Below are positions 3,417 through 60,930 of a stretch of 64,000 nucleotides of DNA, piece by piece. The notes beneath the pieces were generated by a model. It was given only the letters and a program-made list of their open reading frames with translations. It searched no databases and was not told the origin of the DNA. The DNA comes from an uncultured Lachnospiraceae bacterium. GTDB lineage: Bacteria; Bacillota; Clostridia; Lachnospirales; Lachnospiraceae. The translations under genes were made by a program, and so were the position numbers. The stretch lies in contig CAKRJH010000003.1 of the NCBI GenBank assembly GCA_934351255.1, positions 120,588-184,587 on the forward strand. The letters are read 5' to 3'. Numbering within the stretch: position 1 is the stretch's first letter; each line of letters opens with the position of its first letter.

Positions 3417-3758
3417 CTACTCCACCTCCCCGCCAAAGAAACGATGAAACAGTGACGCCGAGATCTCGCCATAGCAGGCATAGACATCCCGGCTGATCCG
3501 CTCGACCTGCTCCCAGGCACTCTCCCGGGAGACCGCCATCCCCACGATCTCGACTCCCCTGTCCCTGTGATAACCAAACCACAGTTCTCTTGAGGAATAG
3601 ACATCCAGACTGTTTGCCGGATTGGAGGGCAGGGTAATGCAATATACGCCCTGTAGCAGTCTGCCCCGTTCCAGTATCTTTCGATACCGGGCCGGGCGGC
3701 GTGAAACTTTCTCATCCATATACAGTTTGGAATTCCAGTTCAGCATATGCCCCTCCAT
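3417..3758 (-). CDS. hypothetical protein (113 aa)
   Basis: ORF in the same orientation and operon context as its neighbours. No recognisable domain. Confidence 0.35.
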   Translation of the reverse strand: MEGHMLNWNSKLYMDEKVSRRPARYRKILERGRLLQGVYCITLPSNPANSLDVYSSRELWFGYHRDRGVEIVGMAVSRESAWEQVERISRDVYACYGEISASLFHRFFGGEVE

Positions 3759-3773
3759 TCCTGTCCCCGTCGT

Positions 3774-9672: not shown

Positions 9673-9813
9673 AACGCGCTCCAATTTCTAAATTATTACT
9701 TAATTCTATTCCATTGCCGTTTATTGGTGATTGCATTGGCCAAAAAATTGTCTTATAATAGGAAAATGTGACGATTTGGGGTCACTGTGTATTCAGAAAG
9801 GATGTACTTACTT

Positions 9814-12800
9814 ATGAAGTTACCATGTCATACTTTAGGAATTGATATCGGATCTACCACAGTTAAAATCGCCATCCTCAACCCGGAGGGCGAGATTATC
9901 TTTTCCGATTATCAGAGACATTATGCCAATATCCAGGAGACATTGGCATCTATTATAAACGACGCTTACCGGGAGCTCGGCGACCTGCCTCTCTCCCCGG
10001 TCATCACCGGTTCCGGCGGACTGGCACTTGCCAAGCATCTGGACATTCCCTTTGTGCAGGAGGTTGTGGCTGTAGCCACCTCCCTGAAAGATTATGCACC
10101 GCGCACCGACGTAGCGATCGAGCTTGGCGGTGAGGATGCAAAGATCATCTACTTTACCGGTGGAATTGACCAGCGTATGAACGGAATCTGTGCCGGAGGT
10201 ACCGGTTCCTTTATCGACCAGATGGCCACGCTGCTCAAGACAGACGCCGCCGGCCTGAATGAATATGCAAAAAACTATAAAATGATCTATCCGATCGCTG
10301 CCCGCTGTGGTGTGTTCGCCAAGACGGATATCCAGCCTCTGATCAATGAGGGTGCGACCCGCGAAGATCTTGCAGCCTCCATTTTCCAGGCGGTGGTCAA
10401 CCAGACGATCTCCGGTCTTGCCTGCGGTAAGCCGATCCGCGGTAATGTCGCATTTCTGGGAGGTCCCCTGCACTTCCTGACCGAGTTAAAACAGGCATTC
10501 ATCCGCACCCTGGATCTGAAGGGTGACGCGATCATTGCCCCGGATCACTCCCATCTGTTTGCGGCATCCGGTGCTGCCATGAATGCAAATCCGGATGAGA
10601 CGATGTCCTCACTGGAAGCACTCCGTGAAAAACTCTCTCACCACATTGAGATCGAGTTTGAGGTGACACGTCTGGAGCCTCTGTTCCGTGATGAACAGGA
10701 ATATCAGGATTTTCTGGCAGATCACTCCAAAAAGGATGTCAAGAAGGGGGATCTTTCCACCTACCGCGGCAACCTGTTCCTGGGTATCGATGCCGGATCC
10801 ACGACCACCAAGATTGCCCTGATCGGTGAAGACGGAACTCTGCTTCACTCCTTCTACGGCAACAACAACGGAAGCCCGCTCAAGACCTCGATCCAGGCGA
10901 TCAAGGACATCTACGCGCGTATTCCGGAGGGCTGTCAGATTGTCCGCTCCTGCTCCACCGGTTATGGTGAGGCTCTGTTAAAATCCGCGCTTCTGCTCGA
11001 CGAGGGCGAAGTCGAGACCGTAGCCCACTACACCGCGGCAGCATTTTTCGAGCCGGATGTAGACTGCATCCTGGATATCGGTGGCCAGGACATGAAATGT
11101 ATCAAGATCAAGAACCACTCCGTCGACAAGGTACAGCTCAATGAAGCCTGTTCCTCCGGCTGTGGTTCCTTTATCGAGACCTTTGCCAAGTCCCTGAACT
11201 ATGAGGTGTCTGATTTTGCCAAGGTAGCTCTGTTTGCCAAGAATCCGATCGACCTGGGTTCACGCTGTACCGTATTTATGAATTCCAAGGTCAAGCAGGC
11301 ACAGAAGGAAGGAGCGACCGTCGCTGATATTTCCGCAGGCCTTGCATACTCTGTCATTAAGAATGCCCTGCTAAAGGTTATCAAGCTCACCGATCCAAAG
11401 GATCTCGGTACGCGCGTGGTAGTACAGGGCGGAACCTTCTACAATGACGCTGTTTTGCGCAGTTTTGAGCGCATCTCAGGATGTACCGCAGTCCGCCCGG
11501 ACATTGCCGGTATCATGGGTGCATTCGGTGCCGCGCTGCTGGCCAGAGACCATTATGAGGGACAGCAGACGACCATGCTGACATTACAGCAGATCAATGA
11601 CCTGAAATATGAATCCAGCATGGCACGCTGCAAGGGCTGTACCAACAACTGTCTGCTGACCATCAACCGCTTTACCGGCGGCCGTCAGTTTATCTCCGGC
11701 AACCGCTGTGAACGCGGACTGGGCAAGCAGAAAAACAAAGACAATATTCCAAATCTGTTTGAATACAAGAACAAACGGCTGTTCCAGCATTACAAACCGC
11801 TGGACGAGGAGCATGCAGTCAGAGGATCTGTGGGTATTCCACGTGTTCTGAATATGTACGAGAACTATCCGTTCTGGTTCACATTCTTTACGGAACTGGG
11901 CTACCGGGTTGTCCTGTCGCCGGTCTCCTCCCGTAAGATCTATGAGCTGGGCATCGAGTCCATCCCAAGCGAGTCCGAGTGTTACCCGGCCAAGCTGGCT
12001 CACGGACATATCACCTGGCTGCTACGTCAGGGACTGGATTACATATTCTACCCATGCATTCCATATGAGCGCACCGAGGTGCCGGACGCCAACAACCACT
12101 ACAACTGTCCGATTGTGACTTCTTATGGAGAAAACATCAAGAATAACGTCGAGGAACTGAAGGATCCTAAGATCAAATATCAGAATCCGTTCCTCTCCCT
12201 GGAATCCGAAAAGATTGCGACCAGCCGTCTGGTGGATTACTTTACCGCAGAGAATGACATCCCAGCCACTGAGATACGCCGCGCCGCAGCACTTGCCTGG
12301 AAAGAGATGGAGAATGCCCGCGAGGATACCCGCAGGAAGGGCGAGGAAGTGCTCGCCTATATGGAGAAGACCGGTCGCCGCGGCATTGTGCTGGCCGGCC
12401 GTCCTTACCATATCGACCCTGAGATCAACCACGGTATTCCGGATCTGATCGCATCCTACGGTGTGGCAGTCCTGACCGAGGACAGCATCTCTCACCTGGG
12501 CGAAGTCGACCGTCCTGCCATCGTCTCAGACCAGTGGATGTACCACTCCCGTCTGTACAAGGCAGCATCCTTTGTCCGTACCAGAGACGATCTGGATCTG
12601 ATCCAGCTCAACTCGTTCGGATGTGGACTGGATGCCGTCACCACGGATCAGGTCAGCGATATCCTGACCAAATCCAACAAGATCTACACGGTACTCAAGA
12701 TCGATGAGGTCAACAACCTTGGAGCAGCCCGCATCCGTATCCGCTCCCTTCTGGCGGCGGTCAAGGAGCGCGAGCGCAAGAACATCAAACCGGTGCAGGC

Positions 12801-14055
12801 GGATACCGCACATCACCGTGTGCTGTTTACCCAGGAGATGCGAAAGGACTATACGATCCTCGTCCCACAGATGTCTCCGATCCATTTCGATATCCTGCAG
12901 CCGGCCATGCGTGCCTGCGGCTATCAGGTCGAGGTCATGCCAAGTGATCCGGAATGTGTGGACTACGGTCTCAAATACGTGAACAATGACGCATGTTACC
13001 CTTCACTGATCGTAGTAGGCCAGTTTATGCGTGCCCTGACTTCCGGCAAGTATGATCTGAACCGAACCGCCCTGATGATCACACAGACCGGCGGTGGCTG
13101 CCGTGCGACCAACTACATCGGCTTCATCCGCCGTGCCCTCGAGAAGGCCGGCATGGGACAGATCCCTGTTATCTCCGTCAGCGCAGGCGTGGAGACCAAC
13201 CCCGGTATGAAATACAGCCTCAAACTCATTCATGCAGCTCTGCAGGCTCTGTATTACGGCGATGTATTTATGCGCGTGCTCTACCGCACCCGTCCTTATG
13301 AGGCGGTACCGGGTTCTGCCAATGCCCTGCATCAGAAGTGGTTAAAGATCTGTCAGGATGCCGTAACCCATCCAAACAAGGCACAGTTCAAGAAAAATGT
13401 GCGCCAGATCGTCCGCGAATTCGATGAACTTCCTCTGCGCGAGGATGTCCGCAAGCCGAGAGTCGGCATTGTCGGAGAGATCCTGGTCAAGTTCATGCCG
13501 CTTGCCAACAACTATCTGGTAGAGCTGCTGGAAGCAGAGGGTGCTGAGGCCGTCTGTCCGGATCTGATGGACTTTATGATGTACAGCCTGTACAATGCCA
13601 ACTTTAAGGCAGAGTACCTCGGCAAAAAGAAGTCCTCCGCAAAGATCAACAATCTGCTGATCTCCTATCTGGAGAATTACCGGAAAGCAGCCAATGACGC
13701 CTTTGCCGCAAGCAAACGCTTTGAGCCGACGACTCCGATCTCCAAGCTGGCCGAATATGCAGATCCGATCGTCTGCGCCGGCAATCAGACCGGTGAGGGA
13801 TGGTTCCTGACCGGTGAGATGGTCGAGCTGATCCACTCCGGTGTGCCAAACATCGTGTGTGCTCAGCCATTCGGATGTCTGCCAAACCACGTCGTAGGTA
13901 AGGGTGTTATCAAGGAGCTGCGCAACCGCTATCCGGATTCCAACATTGTAGCCGTAGACTACGATCCGGGTGCCAGCGAGGTCAACCAGCTGAACCGTAT
14001 CAAACTGATGCTTTCCACCGCGGTCAAGAATCTGAATGAACCGGTGGATGCCTGA
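9814..14055 (+). CDS. Acyl-CoA dehydratase activase-related fusion protein (2 x BadF/BadG/BcrA/BcrD ATPase and 2 x HgdB-like DUF2229 domains)
   Basis: [15 protein letters not shown] at the N-terminus and a second [15 protein letters not shown] copy further in (each with CAGGTGSF or CSSGCGSF) mark two activase ATPase domains. The long intervening and C-terminal regions are cysteine-containing. Total about 1410 aa. ATG 9814 was chosen (SD AAAGGA 11 nt upstream). The track ORF starts at GTG 9787. Confidence 0.8.
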
Positions 14056-15639: not shown

Positions 15640-16044
15640 ATGAAATATAAAGATGACAGCATCCAGATCGATCCGGATGAGCTGAAGCGTCTGATGATCC
15701 AGATTGGAGACCGGTTCCGGATGCAACGGATAAAATACCATATGACACAGGATCAGCTTGCGGAGATCCTCCAGTGTTCCACAGCACATATCTCCGAGAT
15801 CGAGCGCGGCAATAATATGTTTTCCGAAAAATTTCTAATCAAGCTGTTCCTGTGCACACCATTTTCTCCCAACGCATTGTTCGGCGGTCTGGAATCTCCT
15901 CTGTATTCCCATCAGCAATACGATGGTCAGCCAACACTCAGGGATTCTGCTTCCTACCTCTCATCCCAGGAGATGATGCCGGTCTCAGAACACAACCGTA
16001 TTATTGATGATCTCACGGATATTATTCATTCCCTGAAACGCTAA
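15640..16044 (+). CDS. XRE-family helix-turn-helix transcriptional regulator
   Basis: HTH segment MTQDQLAEILQCSTAHISEIERGNN. ATG 15640 has SD AAAGGATGG 8 nt upstream. Diverges from the CPBP protease gene. Confidence 0.7.
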   Translation: MKYKDDSIQIDPDELKRLMIQIGDRFRMQRIKYHMTQDQLAEILQCSTAHISEIERGNNMFSEKFLIKLFLCTPFSPNALFGGLESPLYSHQQYDGQPTLRDSASYLSSQEMMPVSEHNRIIDDLTDIIHSLKR

Positions 16045-16246
16045 AAAAAGAGCAAAACCAGCGTTTTGCTCTGGCAAGAATTTCTTCGAAATTCTTGTTG
16101 GCCTGTCACCACATTACAGCATTTTCCTATCACAAAAAAAAGAGCAAAACCAGCGTTTTGCTCTGGCAAGAATTTCTTCGAAATTCTTGTTGGCCTGTCA
16201 CCACATTACAGCATTTTCCTATTATATAAAAAAGAGCAAAACCAGC
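16045..16246 (+). repeat. Tandem array (2 full units plus 1 partial) of an approximately 90-bp unit with two hairpins, in the 3' UTR of the XRE gene. A related array lies at 56133-56330.
   Basis: Units 16045-16133 and 16134-16224 are near-identical: aaaaaaGAGCAAAACcagcGTTTTGCTCtggCAAGAATTTCttcGAAATTCTTGttggcctgtcaccacattacagcattttcctat. A partial third copy runs 16225-16246. Confidence 0.8.
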
Positions 16247-16256
16247 AAAAAATATA

Positions 16257-16310
16257 CCCCGCTTCCCTCCGGTACATCTCAGTACCAGAGCAGGAAGACG
16301 GGGTTTTATA
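16257..16310. terminator. bidirectional terminator-like GC-rich hairpin
   Basis: CCCCGCTTCCCTCCGGTAC-atctca-GTACCAGAGCAGGAAGACGGGG followed by TTTTAT. The minus-strand side is also T-rich. It lies between convergent genes. Confidence 0.55.
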
Positions 16311-16352: not shown

Positions 16353-17717
16353 TTAGTTCTTGAAGCTGTGGATCGGAGCCGGGATACGTCCGCCTCTGTT
16401 GACAAAATCATCACAGGCAAACTGATTGACCGGCATGATCGGTGCATATCCGAGCAGACCACCAAATTCAACAGTCTCTCCGACGCCCTTTCCGATCACA
16501 GGGATCAGACGTACCGCCGTGGTCTTCTGGTTGACCATACCGATGGCCATCTCATCCGCGATAATACCCGCGATCGTCGCCGGTGAGGTATCTCCCGGCA
16601 CGGCGATCATATCCAGACCAACCGAACATACGCAGGTCATCGCCTCCAGCTTCTCCAGCGTCAGACATCCGTCATTGACTGCATTGATCATACCCTGATC
16701 CTCGCTGACCGGGATAAATGCGCCGCTGAGTCCGCCGACATAGGAAGATGCCATGACACCGCCCTTCTTCACCTGGTCATTGAGCATAGCCAGGGCTGCT
16801 GTCGTACCCGGAGCACCCGCTCTTTGCAGTCCCATCTCCTCAAAGATATCCGCAATACTGTCTCCGATCGCCGGTGTCGGTGCCAGAGAAAGATCGATGA
16901 TACCAAATGGGATCCCCATACGCTTGGAAGCCTCTCTGGCTACAAGCTGTCCCACACGTGTGATCTTAAATGCCGTCTTCTTGATCTTCTCTGCCAGATG
17001 ACCAAAGTCTGTACCATGCTCAGACTCCAGCGCTTTTCTCATAACACCAGGGCCGCTGACACCGACATTGATGATCTCATCTGCCTCTGTCACGCCGTGG
17101 AATGCACCTGCCATGAACGGATTATCATCCGGTGCATTACAGAATACCACCAGCTTGGCACATCCAATGCTGTCGCGGTCTGCCGTGCGCGCTGCGGTCT
17201 GATGTACGATATCTCCCATCAGACGAACCGCATCCATGTTCAGACCGGTCTTGGTGGAACCAAGGTTTACCGAACTGCATACAAAATCCGTCACTGCCAG
17301 GGCGTCCGGGATGGAACGGATCAGCAGCTCATCGCTCACAGTCATTCCCTTGGATACCAGTGCACTGTATCCTCCGATGAAGTTGATCCCCAATGTCTTG
17401 GCCGCACGATCCAGCGTCCTGGCGATCGTCACGTAATCCTCCGGCGTCTTGCAGGCCGCTGCTCCGATCAGTGAGATCGGAGTGACTGAAACACGCTTGT
17501 TCACGATCGGGATTCCATATTCCCTCTCAATATCCTGTCCGGTCTTCACCAGATCTTTGGCCACCGTAGTGATACGGTTGTAAATCTTTTCATTTAACCG
17601 GTCGAGATCGCTGTCAATGCAGCTCAGGAGACTGATACCAATGGTAATGGTACGCACATCCAGATTCTCCTTCTCGATCATATTATTGGTCTCAGTAACC
17701 TCATGTATATTAATCAT
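16353..17717 (-). CDS. UPF0210 (DUF711) PFL-like family protein
   Basis: [31 protein letters not shown] matches the conserved UPF0210 N-terminus. The gene is paired with the upstream ACT-domain gene. ATG 17717 has SD GGAGAA. Confidence 0.85.
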
Positions 17718-17817
17718 GTCATTCTCCATTCTGAAGCGCCCCTCGTCACCGGCCGCTGTGGATCAAACCGTCTGTGTCCACATGTCCTGCGTGGCGCTCC
17801 TTCGTGTGCCGGGATTA

Positions 17818-19916: not shown

Positions 19917-20927
19917 ATGAAAAAGACTCGTGAAAACAACAAAAAAGACCTGCCGGTACTCACGGCGGGTGATTTTATTCTGCGCATGGCAAACCGCATC
20001 AGCGAGTCCGCCATGAGCGCATATGCAGGGCAGGCCGCTTACATGATGATCCTGTCCTTTTTTCCGTTTCTTCTGTTTCTGCTGATCCTGGTTCCATATA
20101 CCCCGCTGGATGCCAACTATCTCATCACCGCGATCGAGAATTTCATCCCGCATACCTTCCAGGGAGTCCTTACCTCTCTGGTATCTGAGGTCTACCAGTC
20201 CAATGCCAGCAATGCCGTGACCATCATCTCATTGACCGTCATCACCATGATCTGGCTCAGCTCCAAGGCATGTATGTCCCTGATGATCGGTCTGGACCGG
20301 ATCTACAAGGTAGAGATCACGGTGCCGGAAAAAGGACGCATTGCACGGTTTTCCCGCCGCATTCCGGAGGCCAATGCGGTCTTCGCCGTCCTGCTGTGGA
20401 TCTACAAGCGTCTGGCAGCCATGCTGTACACCGTGGTATTTGCCGTTCTGCTGATCGGTTCCCAGCTCTTTCTGGTCTTCGGAAACCAGCTCTACCAGAA
20501 ACTTCTCGACCTGTTTCCGTTTCTCGGACACGTCGTATGGCCATACTTCAGCATGCGTACTCTGCTGATCTTTGCCTTCATGGTACTGTTCTTCAATTTC
20601 TTTTACTGGCATGTACCGACGGTAAAGCCCAAGATCTGGCGGCAGTTCCCCGGCGCGATCGTCGCGGCCGGCGGCTGGATCAGTTTCTCCAAGATCTTTT
20701 CCTGGTACGTGGATCATTACAGCAATTATCAGTCCTTCTACGGGGCCATGACCAGCATCGCATTTATCATGGTCTGGCTGTATTTCTGTATGTGCATCCT
20801 GTTCTTCGGTGCCGTTCTCAACAGCATCTGGGGAGAATACCGGGAAGAGTACCACAGGGCACTCAATTCCCTTTCTTCGTCTTCGGATACCCCACATGAC
20901 ATCCCGGATAATAAAACGACAGAATAG
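19917..20927 (+). CDS. YihY/BrkB-family (ribonuclease BN-like) membrane protein
   Basis: Polytopic sequence with the typical YihY N-terminus (...RISESAMSAYAGQAAYMMILSFFPFLLFL...). Confidence 0.8.
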   Translation: MKKTRENNKKDLPVLTAGDFILRMANRISESAMSAYAGQAAYMMILSFFPFLLFLLILVPYTPLDANYLITAIENFIPHTFQGVLTSLVSEVYQSNASNAVTIISLTVITMIWLSSKACMSLMIGLDRIYKVEITVPEKGRIARFSRRIPEANAVFAVLLWIYKRLAAMLYTVVFAVLLIGSQLFLVFGNQLYQKLLDLFPFLGHVVWPYFSMRTLLIFAFMVLFFNFFYWHVPTVKPKIWRQFPGAIVAAGGWISFSKIFSWYVDHYSNYQSFYGAMTSIAFIMVWLYFCMCILFFGAVLNSIWGEYREEYHRALNSLSSSSDTPHDIPDNKTTE

Positions 20928-22548
20928 CATCCGCTTTATGGTGGTCCTTGGCCATCGTACAGGCTCCGGACTGGCTCATTCCGATCCCATGTCCAAATCC
21001 GCCGCCATAGACCATCAGTCGGTCTCCGGCCACCCGCACGTAAAAGGCATTGGACGGCAGCATGGTCTGACCGGCCTGACGCAGTCCCCCGGTCAATGTC
21101 AGGGATCCATCCGAAATCTGCAGGATCCGCCGCATCACCGTGGTATCTGAGATCACGCGGCTGGTGTCTCCTATGATCCGAATTTCTTTGACCAGACCGC
21201 TCTTCGTCCGTCCGGTCACTTCCACTCCGGTCACATTGGCCACACCGCTTCTTGCGGAAATCTCCGACAAATTGACATGTGCATTCCAACGGTACCAGAT
21301 GTCATCGCTGTCATACATTTTCCAGTCACATTTCCGGATAAATTCCTCAAAATCCTGATTATCAGACAGATCCACTTTCTTCTCAGCCTGGTCTGCCGTC
21401 GTCTTTTCCTTGCCATCCCGGAGCTGCCATCGGCCAGTCAGATATTTTTCCTCTCCGCCCCATACCTCAGACGCATCCGCACTGTGCCCCCAGGAGGTCG
21501 CATAGTAATAGGTAGCCGCAAGATTATTTTTGTAGAGCAGCACCTGCCCCACCGTCTGCCGTACCGCCCGTATGGTACTTTTCGTCTCAGCAATGTTATT
21601 GTATACCTGAAAGGTCGTGCTGTCGTCCAGATCGGCCTGATACTGCGGATAACGGTTCCCGTCAAGCTGACGAAGCGCATAGCTTCTCGCACAGATGGCC
21701 TGCGCCTTGAGCGCCTCCAGCGGTGAACCGGTTCCGATCTCACTGGACACTACACTGTACAGATACTGTCCCAGTGTCACCTGGCTGACTACCGCCAGGC
21801 CGTCCTCGTAACCGGTAATGTCCAGCACGCCCCGATAACTCGGGTGTCCACAGGTTCGGGTGATGCTGCTTAACTGTAGCCTTCCATGGTCACTGCCCAC
21901 CCGGACTGTCTGACTGCCGTCCTCTCCGAGCTCTCCCATTGAAAAATAAATCTGTTCTCCTGCGCTGCAGTCATGCCGCACCCCATCTTTTTTGTAGTAA
22001 AATGCCTTGTCACAGGTAATGACAACCTCCCGGTGCAGCAATGCCTCATAGCCATCCGTCTTGATCAGGACACGGATCTTTCTGGCATCGATCTTCTTCG
22101 CCCGCTTTTTCTGGCGCACAAGCTGCTCCTGACGCTGCTTTTCCTGTCTGGCCGCGATCTTCTCCTGCTGCGCCTGATACAGCCGCTCCGACAGCACGCA
22201 CAGAAATAGCAGCACCACAATACACGGTACTGCCACTCTCCAGTCTGATATATCAAATTTCTTTTGTGGCTTCCTCTTGGAAGATTTTCCGGTCATCCGC
22301 CGAGCAGACACTCCGGACTTTCTGCGGAACTGCGACGTTTTGCGTGTGGAGCGGATGCCTGCCGTGCTCCGCTTTCCGGCTGTCCCTCTCCGGCTCCGGC
22401 CGGATGCATTGCTTCGGCTCCCGCCGGTTGTCCTGCTTCGGCTCTGGCCGGTTGCCCTGCTTCGGCTCTGGCCGGTTGTCCTGCTTCGGTTCTGGCCGGT
22501 TGCCCTGCTTCGGCTCTGGCCGGATGGCCGTTTCTTTGTCGTGCTCAC
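20863..22548 (-). CDS. SpoIID/LytB-domain protein with an N-terminal Ser/Arg-rich repeat region and a TM anchor
   Basis: The C-terminal two-thirds is SpoIID-like (...AICARSYALRQL..., ...YYATSWGHSA...). The N-terminus is (T/A)GQ(S/N)RSR repeats followed by a TM helix. The track start is GTG. An internal ATG at about 22296 would exclude the repeats from the coding region. Confidence 0.7.
   Translation of the reverse strand: MSTTKKRPSGQSRSRATGQNRSRTTGQSRSRATGQSRSRTTGGSRSNASGRSRRGTAGKRSTAGIRSTRKTSQFRRKSGVSARRMTGKSSKRKPQKKFDISDWRVAVPCIVVLLFLCVLSERLYQAQQEKIAARQEKQRQEQLVRQKKRAKKIDARKIRVLIKTDGYEALLHREVVITCDKAFYYKKDGVRHDCSAGEQIYFSMGELGEDGSQTVRVGSDHGRLQLSSITRTCGHPSYRGVLDITGYEDGLAVVSQVTLGQYLYSVVSSEIGTGSPLEALKAQAICARSYALRQLDGNRYPQYQADLDDSTTFQVYNNIAETKSTIRAVRQTVGQVLLYKNNLAATYYYATSWGHSADASEVWGGEEKYLTGRWQLRDGKEKTTADQAEKKVDLSDNQDFEEFIRKCDWKMYDSDDIWYRWNAHVNLSEISARSGVANVTGVEVTGRTKSGLVKEIRIIGDTSRVISDTTVMRRILQISDGSLTLTGGLRQAGQTMLPSNAFYVRVAGDRLMVYGGGFGHGIGMSQSGACTMAKDHHKADAILSFYYPGCHVGYPKTKKGN
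22401..22520 (-). repeat. 5 x 24-bp tandem repeat (CCGGTTGYCCTGCTTCGGYTCTGG) encoding GQSRSRxT units
   Basis: The direct repeats are visible in the sequence. They lie inside the 5' end of the SpoIID-like ORF. Confidence 0.7.
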
Positions 22549-54214: not shown

Positions 54215-55981
54215 TTATGGCAGCTGATATTTCTCCTGGAAGGCCAGAAGTCTTCCCTCATACCAGATGTCTTCTCCGCTGCTGATCTTTTCCACATACT
54301 CATGTGCCTCAATGCCCTCGACGCCATTCTGGATCACAGCAAGTGCCACATTGCTCAGATGGTCTCCGATCCGCTCCAGATCCGTCGTGATATCTTCCAG
54401 CACAAATCCCATATCCACGCTGCATTTACCGTGTCTGAGTCTCTTGTGATGTCTGCGGGAGATCTCCTCCTTCAGCTCATCGATGCACTCCTCCAGCGGC
54501 TCGATCGTCTGCGCAGATTTGATATCATCTTTCTCAAAACATGCAATACAACTGTCCATCATCTCCTGAACAGCATCCGCCAGCACGTGCAGTTCACGAA
54601 CCGCCTTCGGAGAAAATTCCTGCTGCTTTTTCTGCATTTTGCTGACCGCATGCATCAGATTCAGGGAAATGTCCGAGATCCGCTCAAAATCTCCCACACA
54701 GTGCTGCAGTTCCACCAGTCTCTTTCCCTCCTGGGCCGAGAGGTGTCTTCCCGCGATCATCGTCAGATAGTTGCCAATGCTGTCCTCATAATGGTCCACT
54801 TCTTTTTCGAGATGATCTACCCGTTCACTTGCCTCTATATCATACTCAAAGATCAGACCCGTTGCAAGGCACAGGGCCTTGGAGGAAAGCTGTGCCATGG
54901 ACTGTGTCGCGCGGGCAGCCTGCATCAGGGCAAAGCCCGGCTGATCCAGAAATCTCGGGTCAAGCTGCTGCAGTGCAGTGTCCTTCTCGTGGGCATTGTG
55001 TTCCTCGCGTTCCGGAATGGACAGGCACGCCAGTTTCTCCAGGACATTGGAAAATGGGAACAATACGATGGTTGCTCCGATATTAAACAGGGAATGAATC
55101 GTCGCGATCCCGGCCGGTCCCGCCGCATGGCCGAGAAAGGCAAACGGCGCAAAGGCATTGATCGTATAAAATATCACCATGAACAAACAGGTTCCGATCA
55201 GATTGAAATACAAATGCACAAAGGCGGTTCGCTTGGCATTCTTGCTCGCACCGATCGCGGACAGAAGCGCCGTCACACAGGTACCGATGTTCTGTCCCAT
55301 GATGATCGGGATGACGGTCCCGTAACTGACACTTCCGGTCAGACAGAGGGCCTGCAGGATACCGACCGATGCAGAAGAACTCTGGATCACCGCGGTCAGG
55401 ACCGCACCGGCGATCATACCCAGCAGAGGCTGCGAGAACATGGTCAGAATACCTGTAAATTCCGGCACATCCTTGAGCGGAGATACCGCACTGCTCATCG
55501 CTTCCATACCGTACATCAGGATTGCAAAGCCCACAAGAATGCTTCCCACATCCTTCTTGCGGTCGGACTTGGAAAACATCAGACAGATAATTCCGATCAG
55601 AGCCAGCACCGGTGAAAAGGAGGTCGGCTTTAACAGCTGGATCCAGAAACTGTCACTCTGGATACCGGAAAGACTCAGGATCCATGACGTCACCGTGGTA
55701 CCGATATTGGCACCCATAATGATCCCGACTGCCTGATGCAGCTTCATAATGCCGGAATTTACAAAACCGACCACCATGACGGTCGTGGCCGAGGAACTCT
55801 GGATCACTGCCGTCACGCCCGCACCCAGGATCACCGCCATAAACTTGTTGGAGGTCAGTTTCGCCAGAATGCTCTCCAGCTTTCCGCCGGACAGTTTGGC
55901 CAGGCCTTCTCCCATCAGATTCATACCGAACAGAAACAGGGCAAGACCTCCCACCATTGATAATACTGCGAATATGTCCAT
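54215..55981 (-). CDS. Na/Pi-cotransporter-family (NptA-like) membrane protein with a C-terminal PhoU-like domain
   Basis: ...VIQSSSATTVMVVGFVNSG... and a second ...VIQSSSAS... half-repeat. The C-terminus has PhoU-like helical repeats. Confidence 0.75.
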   Translation of the reverse strand: MDIFAVLSMVGGLALFLFGMNLMGEGLAKLSGGKLESILAKLTSNKFMAVILGAGVTAVIQSSSATTVMVVGFVNSGIMKLHQAVGIIMGANIGTTVTSWILSLSGIQSDSFWIQLLKPTSFSPVLALIGIICLMFSKSDRKKDVGSILVGFAILMYGMEAMSSAVSPLKDVPEFTGILTMFSQPLLGMIAGAVLTAVIQSSSASVGILQALCLTGSVSYGTVIPIIMGQNIGTCVTALLSAIGASKNAKRTAFVHLYFNLIGTCLFMVIFYTINAFAPFAFLGHAAGPAGIATIHSLFNIGATIVLFPFSNVLEKLACLSIPEREEHNAHEKDTALQQLDPRFLDQPGFALMQAARATQSMAQLSSKALCLATGLIFEYDIEASERVDHLEKEVDHYEDSIGNYLTMIAGRHLSAQEGKRLVELQHCVGDFERISDISLNLMHAVSKMQKKQQEFSPKAVRELHVLADAVQEMMDSCIACFEKDDIKSAQTIEPLEECIDELKEEISRRHHKRLRHGKCSVDMGFVLEDITTDLERIGDHLSNVALAVIQNGVEGIEAHEYVEKISSGEDIWYEGRLLAFQEKYQLP

Positions 55982-56132
55982 GTTTTCTTCCTTTCATCCA
56001 TACAATTCATAGTGTTTACATGTGCTGACTGCCTTTCGGTCACATATTTCTGACCATGACAAACAGCCTGATTACGACCAAAGTATAATCAAGCTGTGTA
56101 AAATGCATATTATCGCAATGTAAAATCTATGT

Positions 56133-56330
56133 AAAAAACGGCAAAACCTGCGTTTTGCCCTAGCAAGAATTGCTTCGCAATTCTTGTTGGACTTCCACTA
56201 CATGACAGCGATTTTCTATTCTAAAAAACGGCAAAACCTGCGTTTTGCCCTAGCAAGAATTGCTTCGCAATTCTTGTTGGACTTCCACTACATGACAGCG
56301 ATTTTCTATTCCAAAAAACGGCAAAACCTC
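56133..56330 (+). repeat. Tandem array (2 full units plus 1 partial) of an approximately 90-bp two-hairpin unit related to the array at 16045-16246
   Basis: Units 56133-56222 and 56223-56312 are identical: aaaaaaCGGCAAAACctgcGTTTTGCCctagCAAGAATTGCttcGCAATTCTTGttggacttccactacatgacagcgattttctattc. The partial copy at 56313-56330 overlaps the stop of the small upstream ORF. Confidence 0.8.
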
Positions 56331-56563
56331 TATTCCTGGTTCATAAGATAGAACAATCCACCCAGATATCCTGCAAATACAGCAGGATATCCGATAAAGC
56401 AGATCATCCAGTCTGCCCGGTCCAGCATGAAGATCCTCACCGCCATCCAGGCCGTCAGTCCGATCAGCCCGAAAAAAGCGGAATTCAACAGAAGAAATAA
56501 CGTTTTGTTGCCATGAACAATCTGATATAAGCCTTTACACCATTCTCTGTAAATATTCATCAT
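56330..56563 (-). CDS. small hydrophobic membrane protein (77 aa)
   Basis: Two predicted TM helices. The ATG overlaps the phoU stop by 4 nt. Confidence 0.4.
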   Translation of the reverse strand: MMNIYREWCKGLYQIVHGNKTLFLLLNSAFFGLIGLTAWMAVRIFMLDRADWMICFIGYPAVFAGYLGGLFYLMNQE

Positions 56564-57216
56564 ACATCACCTTTTTTCTCCTTGACACCATTGACGGAAA
56601 AGATTACCCACTCGGCAATGTTTACCGCATGGTCTCCAATCTTCTCAAAATACTTGGCGACCATCAGAAAATCGGTAGCCTGTTCTCCGTTGTTGACATC
56701 CTGGTTGATCAGATCCACCAGTTCCTGACGGACCATCTTGAACAGATCATCCACCACATCGTCGTGTGCGATCACGGCTCTGGCTTTCTTCACATCATTT
56801 TCCACATAGGCGTCAATGCTTCGGATCACCATATCGGTGGTTTCTGCCGCCATCTGTTTGATGTGATCCAGTTTCTTGATATATGGTTCTTTCGCCAGAA
56901 AAATACTGATTCTGGCAATGTCCGATGCCTGATCTCCGATCCGCTCCAGGTCCGTCACCATCTTGAGGGCTGCTGAGATAAACCTCAGATCCCTGGCGAC
57001 CGGCTGCTGGCACAGCAGAAGTTTCAGGCACAGTCTCTCGATCTCCTTTTCCTTTTCATCAATCTCTTCCTCAAACTCAATGGTCGCATGTGCTTTTCCC
57101 ACATCCTGTCCTACCAGGGCCCCGATCGCCATCTCGATAGAATGCTCCACCAGCTGCCCCATCTGGATCAGAAGATCATTGAGCTGTTTTAACTGCTGCA
57201 AATACTTCTCTCTCAT
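56560..57216 (-). CDS. phoU: phosphate-transport regulator PhoU
   Basis: Two PhoU repeats (...DLERIGDQASDIA..., ...FEKIGDHAVNIAEW). Confidence 0.85.
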   Translation of the reverse strand: MREKYLQQLKQLNDLLIQMGQLVEHSIEMAIGALVGQDVGKAHATIEFEEEIDEKEKEIERLCLKLLLCQQPVARDLRFISAALKMVTDLERIGDQASDIARISIFLAKEPYIKKLDHIKQMAAETTDMVIRSIDAYVENDVKKARAVIAHDDVVDDLFKMVRQELVDLINQDVNNGEQATDFLMVAKYFEKIGDHAVNIAEWVIFSVNGVKEKKGDV

Positions 57217-60844: not shown

Positions 60845-60878
60845 ACGAACGTAAAATCTACTATCATCCGAACGTAAA
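60845..60878 (-). promoter_or_regulatory. direct repeat TTTTACGTTCG x2 (about 23-bp periodicity) upstream of pstS; candidate Pho-box
   Basis: cgaacgtaaaa occurs twice on the + strand, at 60845-60855 and 60868-60878, in the pstS promoter region. Confidence 0.3.
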
Positions 60879-60896
60879 AAAAAAGTAAAAATAAAG

Positions 60897-60930
60897 CAAA
60901 AAGGGGACAGACTTTCATCTGTCCCCTTTC
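60897..60930 (-). terminator. rho-independent terminator 3' of the large upstream gene
   Basis: Minus strand: GGGGACAGA-tgaaag-TCTGTCCCC followed by TTTTTGCTTTATTTTTAC. Confidence 0.55.

Follow-up and report, generated by a model that had tools for sequence, protein, structure and literature searches.

A small, apparently undescribed interspersed repeat of gut Lachnospiraceae that lies behind intrinsic terminators forms a copy-number-variable array in a phosphate locus

Bacillus cereus carries a small interspersed structured repeat, bcr1. REP/BIME elements, the pneumococcal BOX, RUP and SPRITE elements, and bacterial MITEs are further repeats of this kind (PMC3049150, PMC2817692, PMC10969869). 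The Lachnospiraceae unit described here shares with all of them a length below 200 nt, the absence of coding sequence, stable hairpins, a dispersed intergenic distribution, lineage-specific subfamilies, an arrangement that is sometimes modular or clustered, the lack of a transposase of its own, and the capacity to serve as a terminator or to influence neighbouring transcripts. Unlike them, it has no terminal inverted repeats and is not arranged in REPIN-type inverted pairs; it lies strictly behind the T-tract of an intrinsic terminator, in a single orientation, and its hairpin would form a terminator with a duplicated T-tract. No RAYT or IS partner was identified.

Mycobacterial MIRUs are head-to-tail intergenic units of 40-100 nt, present at several loci per genome in strain-variable copy number; a classic MIRU site lies between senX3 and regX3, a phosphate-linked two-component system. 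MIRUs do not act as terminators, and the short ORFs inside them extend into the stop and start codons of the genes on either side. The Lachnospiraceae units are likewise tandem, intergenic, found at several loci and variable in number between strains, but their periods are 90 and 92 nt, they hold no conserved frame, and a terminator stands at the end of each unit. Intrinsic terminators, for their part, are normally alike in shape and not in sequence. Hairpin 1 of the unit resembles an ordinary one, with a G+C-containing stem of 8-10 bp, a 4-nt loop, 6-7 T's and a co-directional gene upstream, but its sequence is nearly constant at at least 100 unrelated loci, where a conserved tail is attached to it. 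To our knowledge, group IIC introns are the sole elements so far known to home to terminators. PMC12584367, citing Robart et al. 2007 (PMC1871835), describes them as retroelements that insert after intrinsic terminators; the Lachnospiraceae unit is like them in lying downstream of Rho-independent terminators, in the terminator's orientation, without a promoter and dependent on host read-through. Only this insertion context is alike, however, and we rejected a group IIC intron as the identity of the unit: it is 62-92 nt long, has neither ribozyme domains nor a reverse-transcriptase ORF, matches no group II intron in Rfam, and is flanked by a duplication of a sort that retrohoming via reverse splicing does not produce. 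The family is closest to the REP, BOX, RUP, bcr and MITE-type repeats and to the MIRU-type minisatellites; what sets it apart from them is a strict position and orientation behind terminator T-tracts, and the new terminator that comes with each copy.

The window, by which we mean the whole 64,000-nt stretch of DNA that was analysed, contains two arrays of the unit, called array A (near 16 kb) and array B (near 56 kb) below; their features are collected in Table 1. Tandem Repeats Finder placed array A at 16043-16246 (period 92, 2.2 copies) and array B at 56132-56329 (period 90, 2.2 copies, 99% matches, score 389). Units of one array are 97-99% identical and identity across the arrays is ∼81%, which bears out a first-pass annotation that took array B for a second array of the two-hairpin unit of array A. 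Read on the minus strand, the unit consists of a tail of ∼35 nt, hairpin 2, hairpin 1 and a T-tract. As minus-strand RNA, hairpin 2 is CAAGAAUUGC GAA GCAAUUCUUG and hairpin 1 is GGGCAAAAC GCAG GUUUUGCC, then GUUUUUU. Both hairpins are predicted in both arrays, the hairpin 1 stems folding at -10.5 and -13.3 kcal/mol, and the compensatory stem substitutions reported between the arrays are indeed present, one pair in each hairpin: in hairpin 2, counting from the loop, the second pair is G-C in one array and U-A in the other; in hairpin 1, counting from the base, the third pair is G-C or A-U. The hairpin motifs of arrays A and B occur at only these two sites in the 64-kb window (0 matches expected from shuffles), and a covariance model built from family members and run on the window found no copy beyond them. 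A consensus scan scored hairpin 1 with its T-run as a predicted intrinsic terminator in each of the four full units, and only for the minus strand; in both arrays this G+C-containing stem-loop and T-tract lie downstream of a co-directional gene, which is orf77 for array B and a DUF711 gene (16353-17729) for array A.

Two points of the first-pass annotation need correction. The arrays had been given opposite transcriptional orientations, and they lie the same way round on the + strand; the partial copy had been said to overlap the stop codon of the 77-aa ORF, and it abuts that codon (56330-56332). Array A stands between convergent genes and, in antisense, could also belong to the 3' region of the + strand XRE gene; despite this convergent setting, the family-wide pattern ties the unit to the co-directional upstream gene.

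Table 1. Coordinates of the repeat arrays and of neighbouring features in the 64,000-nt window
Feature	Position	Strand	Evidence or remark
Partial unit: 3' arm of hairpin 1 and T-tract (AGGTTTTGCCGTTTTTT)	56313..56329	-	Directly after orf77 stop codon
Unit B1, 90 nt: tail GGAATAGAAAATCGCTGTCATGTAGTGGAAGTCCAAC, hairpin 2, hairpin 1, T-tract	56223..56312	-	Aligned with 55 family members
Unit B2, 90 nt	56133..56222	-	98.9% identical to B1
B1 hairpin 1 (GGCAAAAC GCAG GTTTTGCC), then GTTTTTT 56223-56229	56230..56249	-	Terminator scan; stem -10.5 kcal/mol
B2 hairpin 1, then GTTTTTT 56133-56139	56140..56159	-	Intrinsic-terminator motif, terminator scan
B1 hairpin 2 (CAAGAATTGC GAA GCAATTCTTG)	56254..56276	-	
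B2 hairpin 2	56164..56186	-	
orf77: 77-aa ORF, two hydrophobic stretches, last gene before array B	56330..56563	-	
phoU	56560..57216	-	Pfam PF01895
nptA-like Na/Pi cotransporter with PhoU domain, first gene past array B	54215..55981	-	Pfam PF02690 and PF01895
Promoter-like site for nptA-phoPR	56107..56135	-	-35 region is a Pho-box-type direct repeat, TTTTAC-ATAGA-TTTTAC, 56119-56135
Array A: 92-nt units 16136-16227 and 16044-16135	16044..16246	-	Orientation as array B
Half hairpin 1 and T-tract ahead of array A units on the minus strand	16228-16246	-	
Native terminator of the DUF711 gene (CCCCGTCTTCC...GGAAGCGGGG, then TATATTTTTT)	16247..16303	-	Array A starts directly after the T-tract

We conclude, with a probability of about 0.6, that array B is just over two head-to-tail copies of a non-coding, non-autonomous interspersed Lachnospiraceae repeat, a terminator-carrying passenger that is copied and pasted at terminator T-tracts. 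The repeat is found well beyond the window. A two-hairpin pattern matched genomes of Butyribacter intestini, a Butyribacter MAG, a Jutongia MAG and an uncultured Lachnospiraceae MAG, and among these matches are an array of three units, one of them diverged, and a long unit beside a unit without hairpin 2; scans of viral collections gave four contigs with long and short forms, and a hairpin-1 pattern gave at least 120 metagenome loci, largely labelled human gut. Two forms can be told apart, a long one of ∼90 nt and a short one of ∼62 nt without hairpin 2. After removal of redundancy and contig edges, 40 long, 21 short and 20 solo hairpin 1 architectures, together with several arrays, of which some combine long and short units, were counted among the matches listed. 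The consensus unit has a tail of ∼35 nt (TATAGGAAAATGCTCGTAAyGTAGwG...CCAAC), an optional 10-bp hairpin 2, and a 10-bp hairpin 1 (GGGCAAAAC GCUG GUUUUGCCC) followed by the T-tract. The alignment of the 56 long units among the matches listed has a mean identity of 86%; the two hairpins are its only consensus structure, with 98.5% of cells paired and 3 covarying pairs. One pair of hairpin 2 is G-U in 31 of these listed units and A-U in 24, which restricts the fold to the terminator strand; the complementary strand would carry C-A mismatches. The metagenome sample was retrieved with a pattern of hairpin 1 plus TTTT, which partly forces the invariance of the hairpin 1 core and of the T-tract in it. 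That bias does not touch the first genome scan or the secondary copies that lie in the flanks of the retrieved loci; these, though few, agree with the sample. The secondary copies include a compensated hairpin 1 variant, GCAAAGC...GCUUUGC, and truncations at both ends, among them 3'-truncated and internally deleted units.

The family is apparently undescribed, resides in gut Lachnospiraceae and shows VNTR-like behaviour. A literature search by exact sequence strings and by topic found neither the sequences nor a description of the repeat in the papers it covered, the consensus unit had no match in the phage (INPHARED) and plasmid (PLSDB) collections, and Rfam, searched with the whole window at gathering thresholds and with the locus at E <= 10, returned only a tRNA elsewhere and chance miRNA-like hairpins. 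No full-length parent element, transposase or reverse transcriptase was found for the family: when the ORFs within 3 kb of at least 100 loci were clustered, no partner enzyme or transposase-like family emerged, and the recurrent ORFs were orthologous housekeeping genes.

The tail of the unit is conserved in sequence across genera, and no structure is predicted for it. A function of the RNA itself or in protein binding, kept by selection, would also explain this, in place of a purely selfish repeat, and it is a counterpoint to our main reading. The unit might then be a functional RNA module, an sRNA or 3'-UTR element kept by selection and acting in trans, with the tail as seed or protein-binding site, hairpin 2 as stabiliser and hairpin 1 as terminator; we consider this unlikely. 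In its favour, ATAGGAAAATGCTCGTAA and CCAAC are nearly invariant in the tail although no search pattern required them, many base-pairing sRNAs are laid out in the same way, with a 5' part free of structure ahead of a terminator hairpin, the structure is strand-specific through its G-U pairs, and lineage-specific subfamilies are present within genomes. Promoter scans of both strands, however, found no conserved sigma-70-type promoter for the unit, and what lies upstream is a different native terminator at each locus, so the unit would be made by read-through alone. Conspecific strains hold 0-3 copies, truncated and internally deleted copies are common, and no Rfam family matches. An sRNA gene with its own promoter was likewise rejected, the terminator being present and the promoter not conserved; sigma-H-like and extended -10 readings of the tail, judged by eye, did not fit.

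The interspersed-passenger reading draws on where the units lie. We compared 67 non-redundant arrays that begin with a tail with random positions in the same loci. Among the matches listed, the 16 nt upstream held a T-rich run in 65 of the 67, against 15% of random positions, and an A-rich run in none (0/67). The 47 nt before the T-rich run folded at a median of -15.9 kcal/mol, against -5.9 kcal/mol at random positions (p = 8e-24, among the matches listed); these hairpins, different at every locus, are the native terminators of the upstream genes. Units start 3-8 nt after the upstream T-tract, in the orientation of that terminator, and among the matches listed the gap between T-tract and ATAGG measured 4-8 nt at 60 of 63 loci, 36 of which had a gap of exactly 5 nt. 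The nearest upstream ORF was co-directional in 43 of 53 listed loci; downstream ORFs among the matches listed were co-directional in 26 cases and opposite in 26, and the genes are unrelated.

The T-tract appears to be duplicated on insertion. The prefix shared by the sequences after the upstream T-tract and after the unit's own T-tract had a mean length of 1.56 among the matches listed, against 0.74 ± 0.11 when shuffled, a value reached in 0 of 2000 shuffles, and the first base after both T-tracts was the same in 42 of 59 listed loci, against 25.8 expected. Upstream and unit T-tract lengths are weakly correlated. Unambiguous duplications are found in L097 (TTTGTTATGG), L121 (TTTTTTTAATAT), L134 (TTTTGTGCT), and L069 and L098 (CTTTTTTATT). 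The apparent duplication holds the T-tract and is ∼7-13 nt long, a length that seems variable and is blurred by changes in T-tract length; 0-3 extra bases, mostly G, precede TATAGG. Sister lineages (HemB 91-93% identical) retain, at the hemB locus, the native terminator of the DtxR-like gene upstream, but they lack a unit; only in the L097/L164 lineage does one stand behind it. No exact empty site (flanks without remnant) was found, the hemB spacers of the sister lineages being too diverged for base-by-base comparison, and we therefore infer insertion with T-tract duplication from the statistics and the sister-lineage absence.

These features suggest how the repeat would spread. New copies would be pasted at terminator T-tracts, with duplication of the T-tract; the incoming hairpin and the duplicated T-tract would make a new terminator and with it a new target, which would explain arrays of unlike units. 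The arrays of this type (L014, L018 and L134) fit repeated insertion behind the preceding unit's terminator. Near-identical neighbouring units would be gained or lost in another way, by unequal recombination or slippage between the repeats of 17-45 nt at unit ends; near-identity within arrays and direct repeats of 17-19 nt at the unit ends are consistent with this. A duplication that includes the T-tract and seems to vary in length, orientation specificity, and the absence of inverted ends and of a linked enzyme fit poorly with a transposase of fixed stagger. Target-primed reverse transcription of a U-tailed read-through transcript and template switching between T-tracts would both fit.

In the first of these, the repeat would move through a SINE-like RNA intermediate: a read-through transcript that ends with the U-tract of hairpin 1 would pair with the A-tract facing a terminator T-tract and be reverse-transcribed from a nick at that place, and the product would be integrated with duplication of the T-tract. 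We regard this as improbable. It agrees with the orientation-specific association with T-rich and not A-rich sequence, with a duplication that includes the T-tract and seems to vary in length, with the extra bases before TATAGG, with the lack of inverted terminal repeats, and with the many copies that retain only the 3' part (solo hairpin 1, or hairpin 2 plus hairpin 1); the group IIC introns, which PMC12584367 presents as promoter-less retroelements behind terminators, are a precedent. On the other hand, no reverse transcriptase is linked to the family among the ORFs within 3 kb, an excess of 3'-part-only copies is expected from a search anchored on hairpin 1, and the copies free of that bias include 3'-truncated and internally deleted ones, as ordinary decay would give. 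Changes in T-tract length blur the duplication lengths, and template switching by DNA polymerase between post-hairpin T-tracts would leave the same scars without RNA. The broader proposal that the family is a new kind of mobile element, promoter-less, 62-90 nt long and homing in a single orientation to terminator T-tracts, perhaps RNA-copied by target-primed reverse transcription on the A-tract as a SINE-like parasite of read-through transcripts, is rather unlikely as a whole.

Several other identities were considered and rejected. The unit is short, non-coding and present in many dispersed copies, as a MITE would be; its 5' end, (G)GTATAGGAAAATGC, and the reverse complement of its 3' end, GGGCAAAACC..., do not form terminal inverted repeats, and no IS with the unit's ends was seen near any copy. 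REP/BIME elements were excluded on arrangement, the units being always head-to-tail with no inverted pairs, and no tyrosine-transposase-like neighbour is enriched among the ORFs within 3 kb. A MIRU-type short ORF running through array B is permitted on the + strand by the 90-nt period (56184-56351), because 90 is a multiple of 3; the frame is conserved neither in array A, with its 92-nt units, nor in the family. A mini-ORF in the tail (ATG CTC GTA ACG TAG) is common, is missing in array B, and has an SD-like AGGA too near its ATG. In a CRISPR array unique spacers would be found, and here the entire 90-nt period is repeated. Type III toxin-antitoxin RNA repeats (ToxI-like) do not agree with a terminator in each unit and varied housekeeping genes downstream, and a riboswitch or cis attenuator does not agree with downstream genes that are unrelated and half of them convergent, with the absence of conserved tail structure, or with the lack of an Rfam match.

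Array B lies in a phosphate locus. Pfam assignments give the minus-strand order pstS, pstC, pstA, pstB, phoU, orf77, array B, an NptA-PhoU fusion, a response regulator and a histidine kinase, which agrees with the first-pass placement of the array between phoU/orf77 and nptA, all on the minus strand. PhoP/PhoB boxes are hexamer repeats with an 11-bp period, and on these features we take the TTTTAC-N5-TTTTAC sequence immediately past the array to be a PhoP-dependent nptA-phoPR promoter. The first TTTT of the box is supplied by the T-tract of the last array B unit. A similar TTTTAC-N5-TTTTAC lies upstream of pstS, and the box is also found upstream of nptA in sister species (L154-L156). The description of the array as embedded in one operon therefore finds no support: with a terminator in every unit and a Pho-box-type promoter next to it, array B separates two transcription units. 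The sister species, whose NptA is 73-74% identical, have the gene of a small alarmone synthetase between the orf77 homologue and nptA, and no repeat unit was found at their pho locus. The closest named NptA homologues come from Lachnospiraceae MAGs.

The number of units at this locus varies between strains. Many gut-metagenome contigs encode an identical orf77 protein, and the alleles were taken from these. The orf77-nptA spacer of conspecific contigs is 168, 258, 278 or 348 nt long. The 168-nt spacer holds no full unit, just half a hairpin and a T-tract; the 258-nt spacer holds one unit, and the 348-nt spacer, which is the window allele, holds two. The 278-nt spacer (L004, L007 and L010) has one unit and an intact first hairpin 1, preceded by AGGTGGGGGT, and in its light the window's partial copy looks like a 20-nt deletion between two AGGT repeats. 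The count of intact predicted terminators that separate orf77 from the nptA promoter is 0 where no full unit is present (L002 and L008), 1 in the one-unit alleles, and 2 in L004, L007 and L010 as well as in the window allele. At locus A, 0, 1, 2 or 3 units are present among contigs with an identical XRE protein. Both loci thus show tandem intergenic units of strain-variable number, in the manner of MIRU-like VNTRs. The contigs are assembled from short reads, a process in which arrays may be collapsed, and one of them (L023) has an N-gap within array A, so that copy numbers may be underestimated. Collapse cannot account for the unit-free alleles or for the allele with AGGTGGGGGT. Elsewhere, L036 and L134 are versions of one locus, with 528 of 530 flanking bases in common; the difference in their arrays is a single 93-nt long unit, which adjoins a resident short unit and may have been either inserted or deleted.

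These alleles bear on a role in phosphate control. An attenuator or processing site specific to the pst-phoU-nptA-phoPR cluster, as the first-pass annotation had suggested, would suit the position of array B between phoU/orf77 and nptA and the sense orientation of its predicted terminators, which can lower read-through into nptA-phoPR. The proposal is largely refuted, and we consider it very improbable: many unrelated genes precede the unit and its neighbours are diverse, strains of one species have 0, 1 or 2 units, sister species have none here and retain the nptA Pho-box promoter, and neither a ligand-type nor an antiterminator structure is present, nor does any Rfam family match. The annotation's fallback, an insertion tolerated in an intergenic spot, comes close to what the evidence indicates. 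That array B is a mere local tandem duplication of the native terminator of orf77, a minisatellite without a family, is scarcely credible: the 99% identity within the array and copy-number changes that fit unequal recombination between unit ends agree with it, but an 81%-identical array lies 40 kb away and at least 100 related loci in other genera have the same boundaries, so that local duplication is refuted as a complete explanation and is likely to remain as the mechanism of the copy-number changes.

On the interspersed-passenger reading, array B would be carried as a passenger, with the pstSCAB-phoU-orf77 transcript on one side and the PhoP-dependent nptA-phoPR promoter on the other. The unit count would set the number of intact predicted terminators and so is likely to alter, or reduce, pst-operon read-through into nptA-phoPR. 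With 0, 1 or 2 predicted terminators behind the pst-phoU operon and ahead of the autoregulated nptA-phoPR genes, the naturally occurring alleles offer a ready-made test series for the influence of read-through on phosphate signalling.

The family is common in abundant human-gut Lachnospiraceae and therefore affects the annotation of gene boundaries, terminator prediction, short-read assembly and strain typing; its arrays collapse or break short-read contigs, and in strain typing they act as VNTRs. Homing to terminators, and building terminators from a carried hairpin and the T-tract of the target, would be a new behaviour for small bacterial repeats. If its copying should prove to be RNA-based, the family would be the first of its kind in bacteria.

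Probable PhoP boxes, direct repeats of the form TTTTAC-N5-TTTTAC, lie upstream of nptA and of pstS (see the table of window features). The final unit of array B, the repeat array between orf77 and nptA, provides the first TTTT of the nptA box through its T-tract. The junction, GCCGTTTTTTACATAG, is identical across all alleles, the conspecific contigs that carry zero, one or two units in this spacer. In three contigs of sister species (L154, L155 and L156, ~1745-2363) a gene for a small alarmone synthetase with a RelA_SpoT domain is found between the orf77 homologue and nptA, while in the window's species this gene is absent and the repeat array is there instead.

Features of the window
Feature	Position	Strand
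TTTTAC-N5-TTTTAC direct repeat, upstream of nptA	56119-56135	(-)
TTTTAC-N5-TTTTAC direct repeat, upstream of pstS	~60850-60905	(-)
orf77-nptA spacer	55982-56329	
Hairpin 2 with GCGAAGC tip	56254-56276	
Hairpin 2 with GCGAAGC tip	56164-56186	
24-nt tandem repeat, 6.2 copies	22376-22523	
561-aa ORF with octapeptide repeats	20863-22548	(-)
Very long ORF, 1422 aa, BcrAD/BadFG-type activase ATPase domains fused to DUF2229	9787-14055	(+)

At its tip, hairpin 2 has GCGAAGC in array B and in most family members, with GCAAAGC, GCTTTGC or GCTTTAGC as variants in others. GCGAAGC is the classic DNA mini-hairpin d(GCGAAGC), which is unusually stable, a hint that hairpin 2 might matter in single-stranded DNA and not in RNA alone. 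In the family alignment, the tail of most units contains AGGAAA-ATG CTC GTA ACG TAG. This is a mini-ORF of four codons whose in-frame TAG is conserved; array B does not have it. The SD-like AGGA is too close to the ATG, and the mini-ORF is probably not translated.

Two further features of the window were recorded. The 24-nt tandem repeat codes for octapeptide repeats rich in Arg and Ser (TGQSRSRA-like), located at the N-terminal end of the 561-aa ORF. The gene call for the activase-DUF2229 ORF in contigs of the same species is 1413 aa.

Short-read assemblers collapse or break the repeat arrays, which makes copy numbers taken from public assemblies unreliable; one scaffold (L023) has an N-gap at ~3600-3760, within array A, the sister array. 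Long- and short-form members of the family, again shortly after a terminator, occur in IMG/VR contigs classed as viral (L029-L032); a search of the annotated phage collection gave no family member. At some genes (family loci L036, L057 and L104), hairpin 1 of the repeat is apparently the sole terminator past the stop codon. If so, the element would there have been co-opted as the gene's working terminator.
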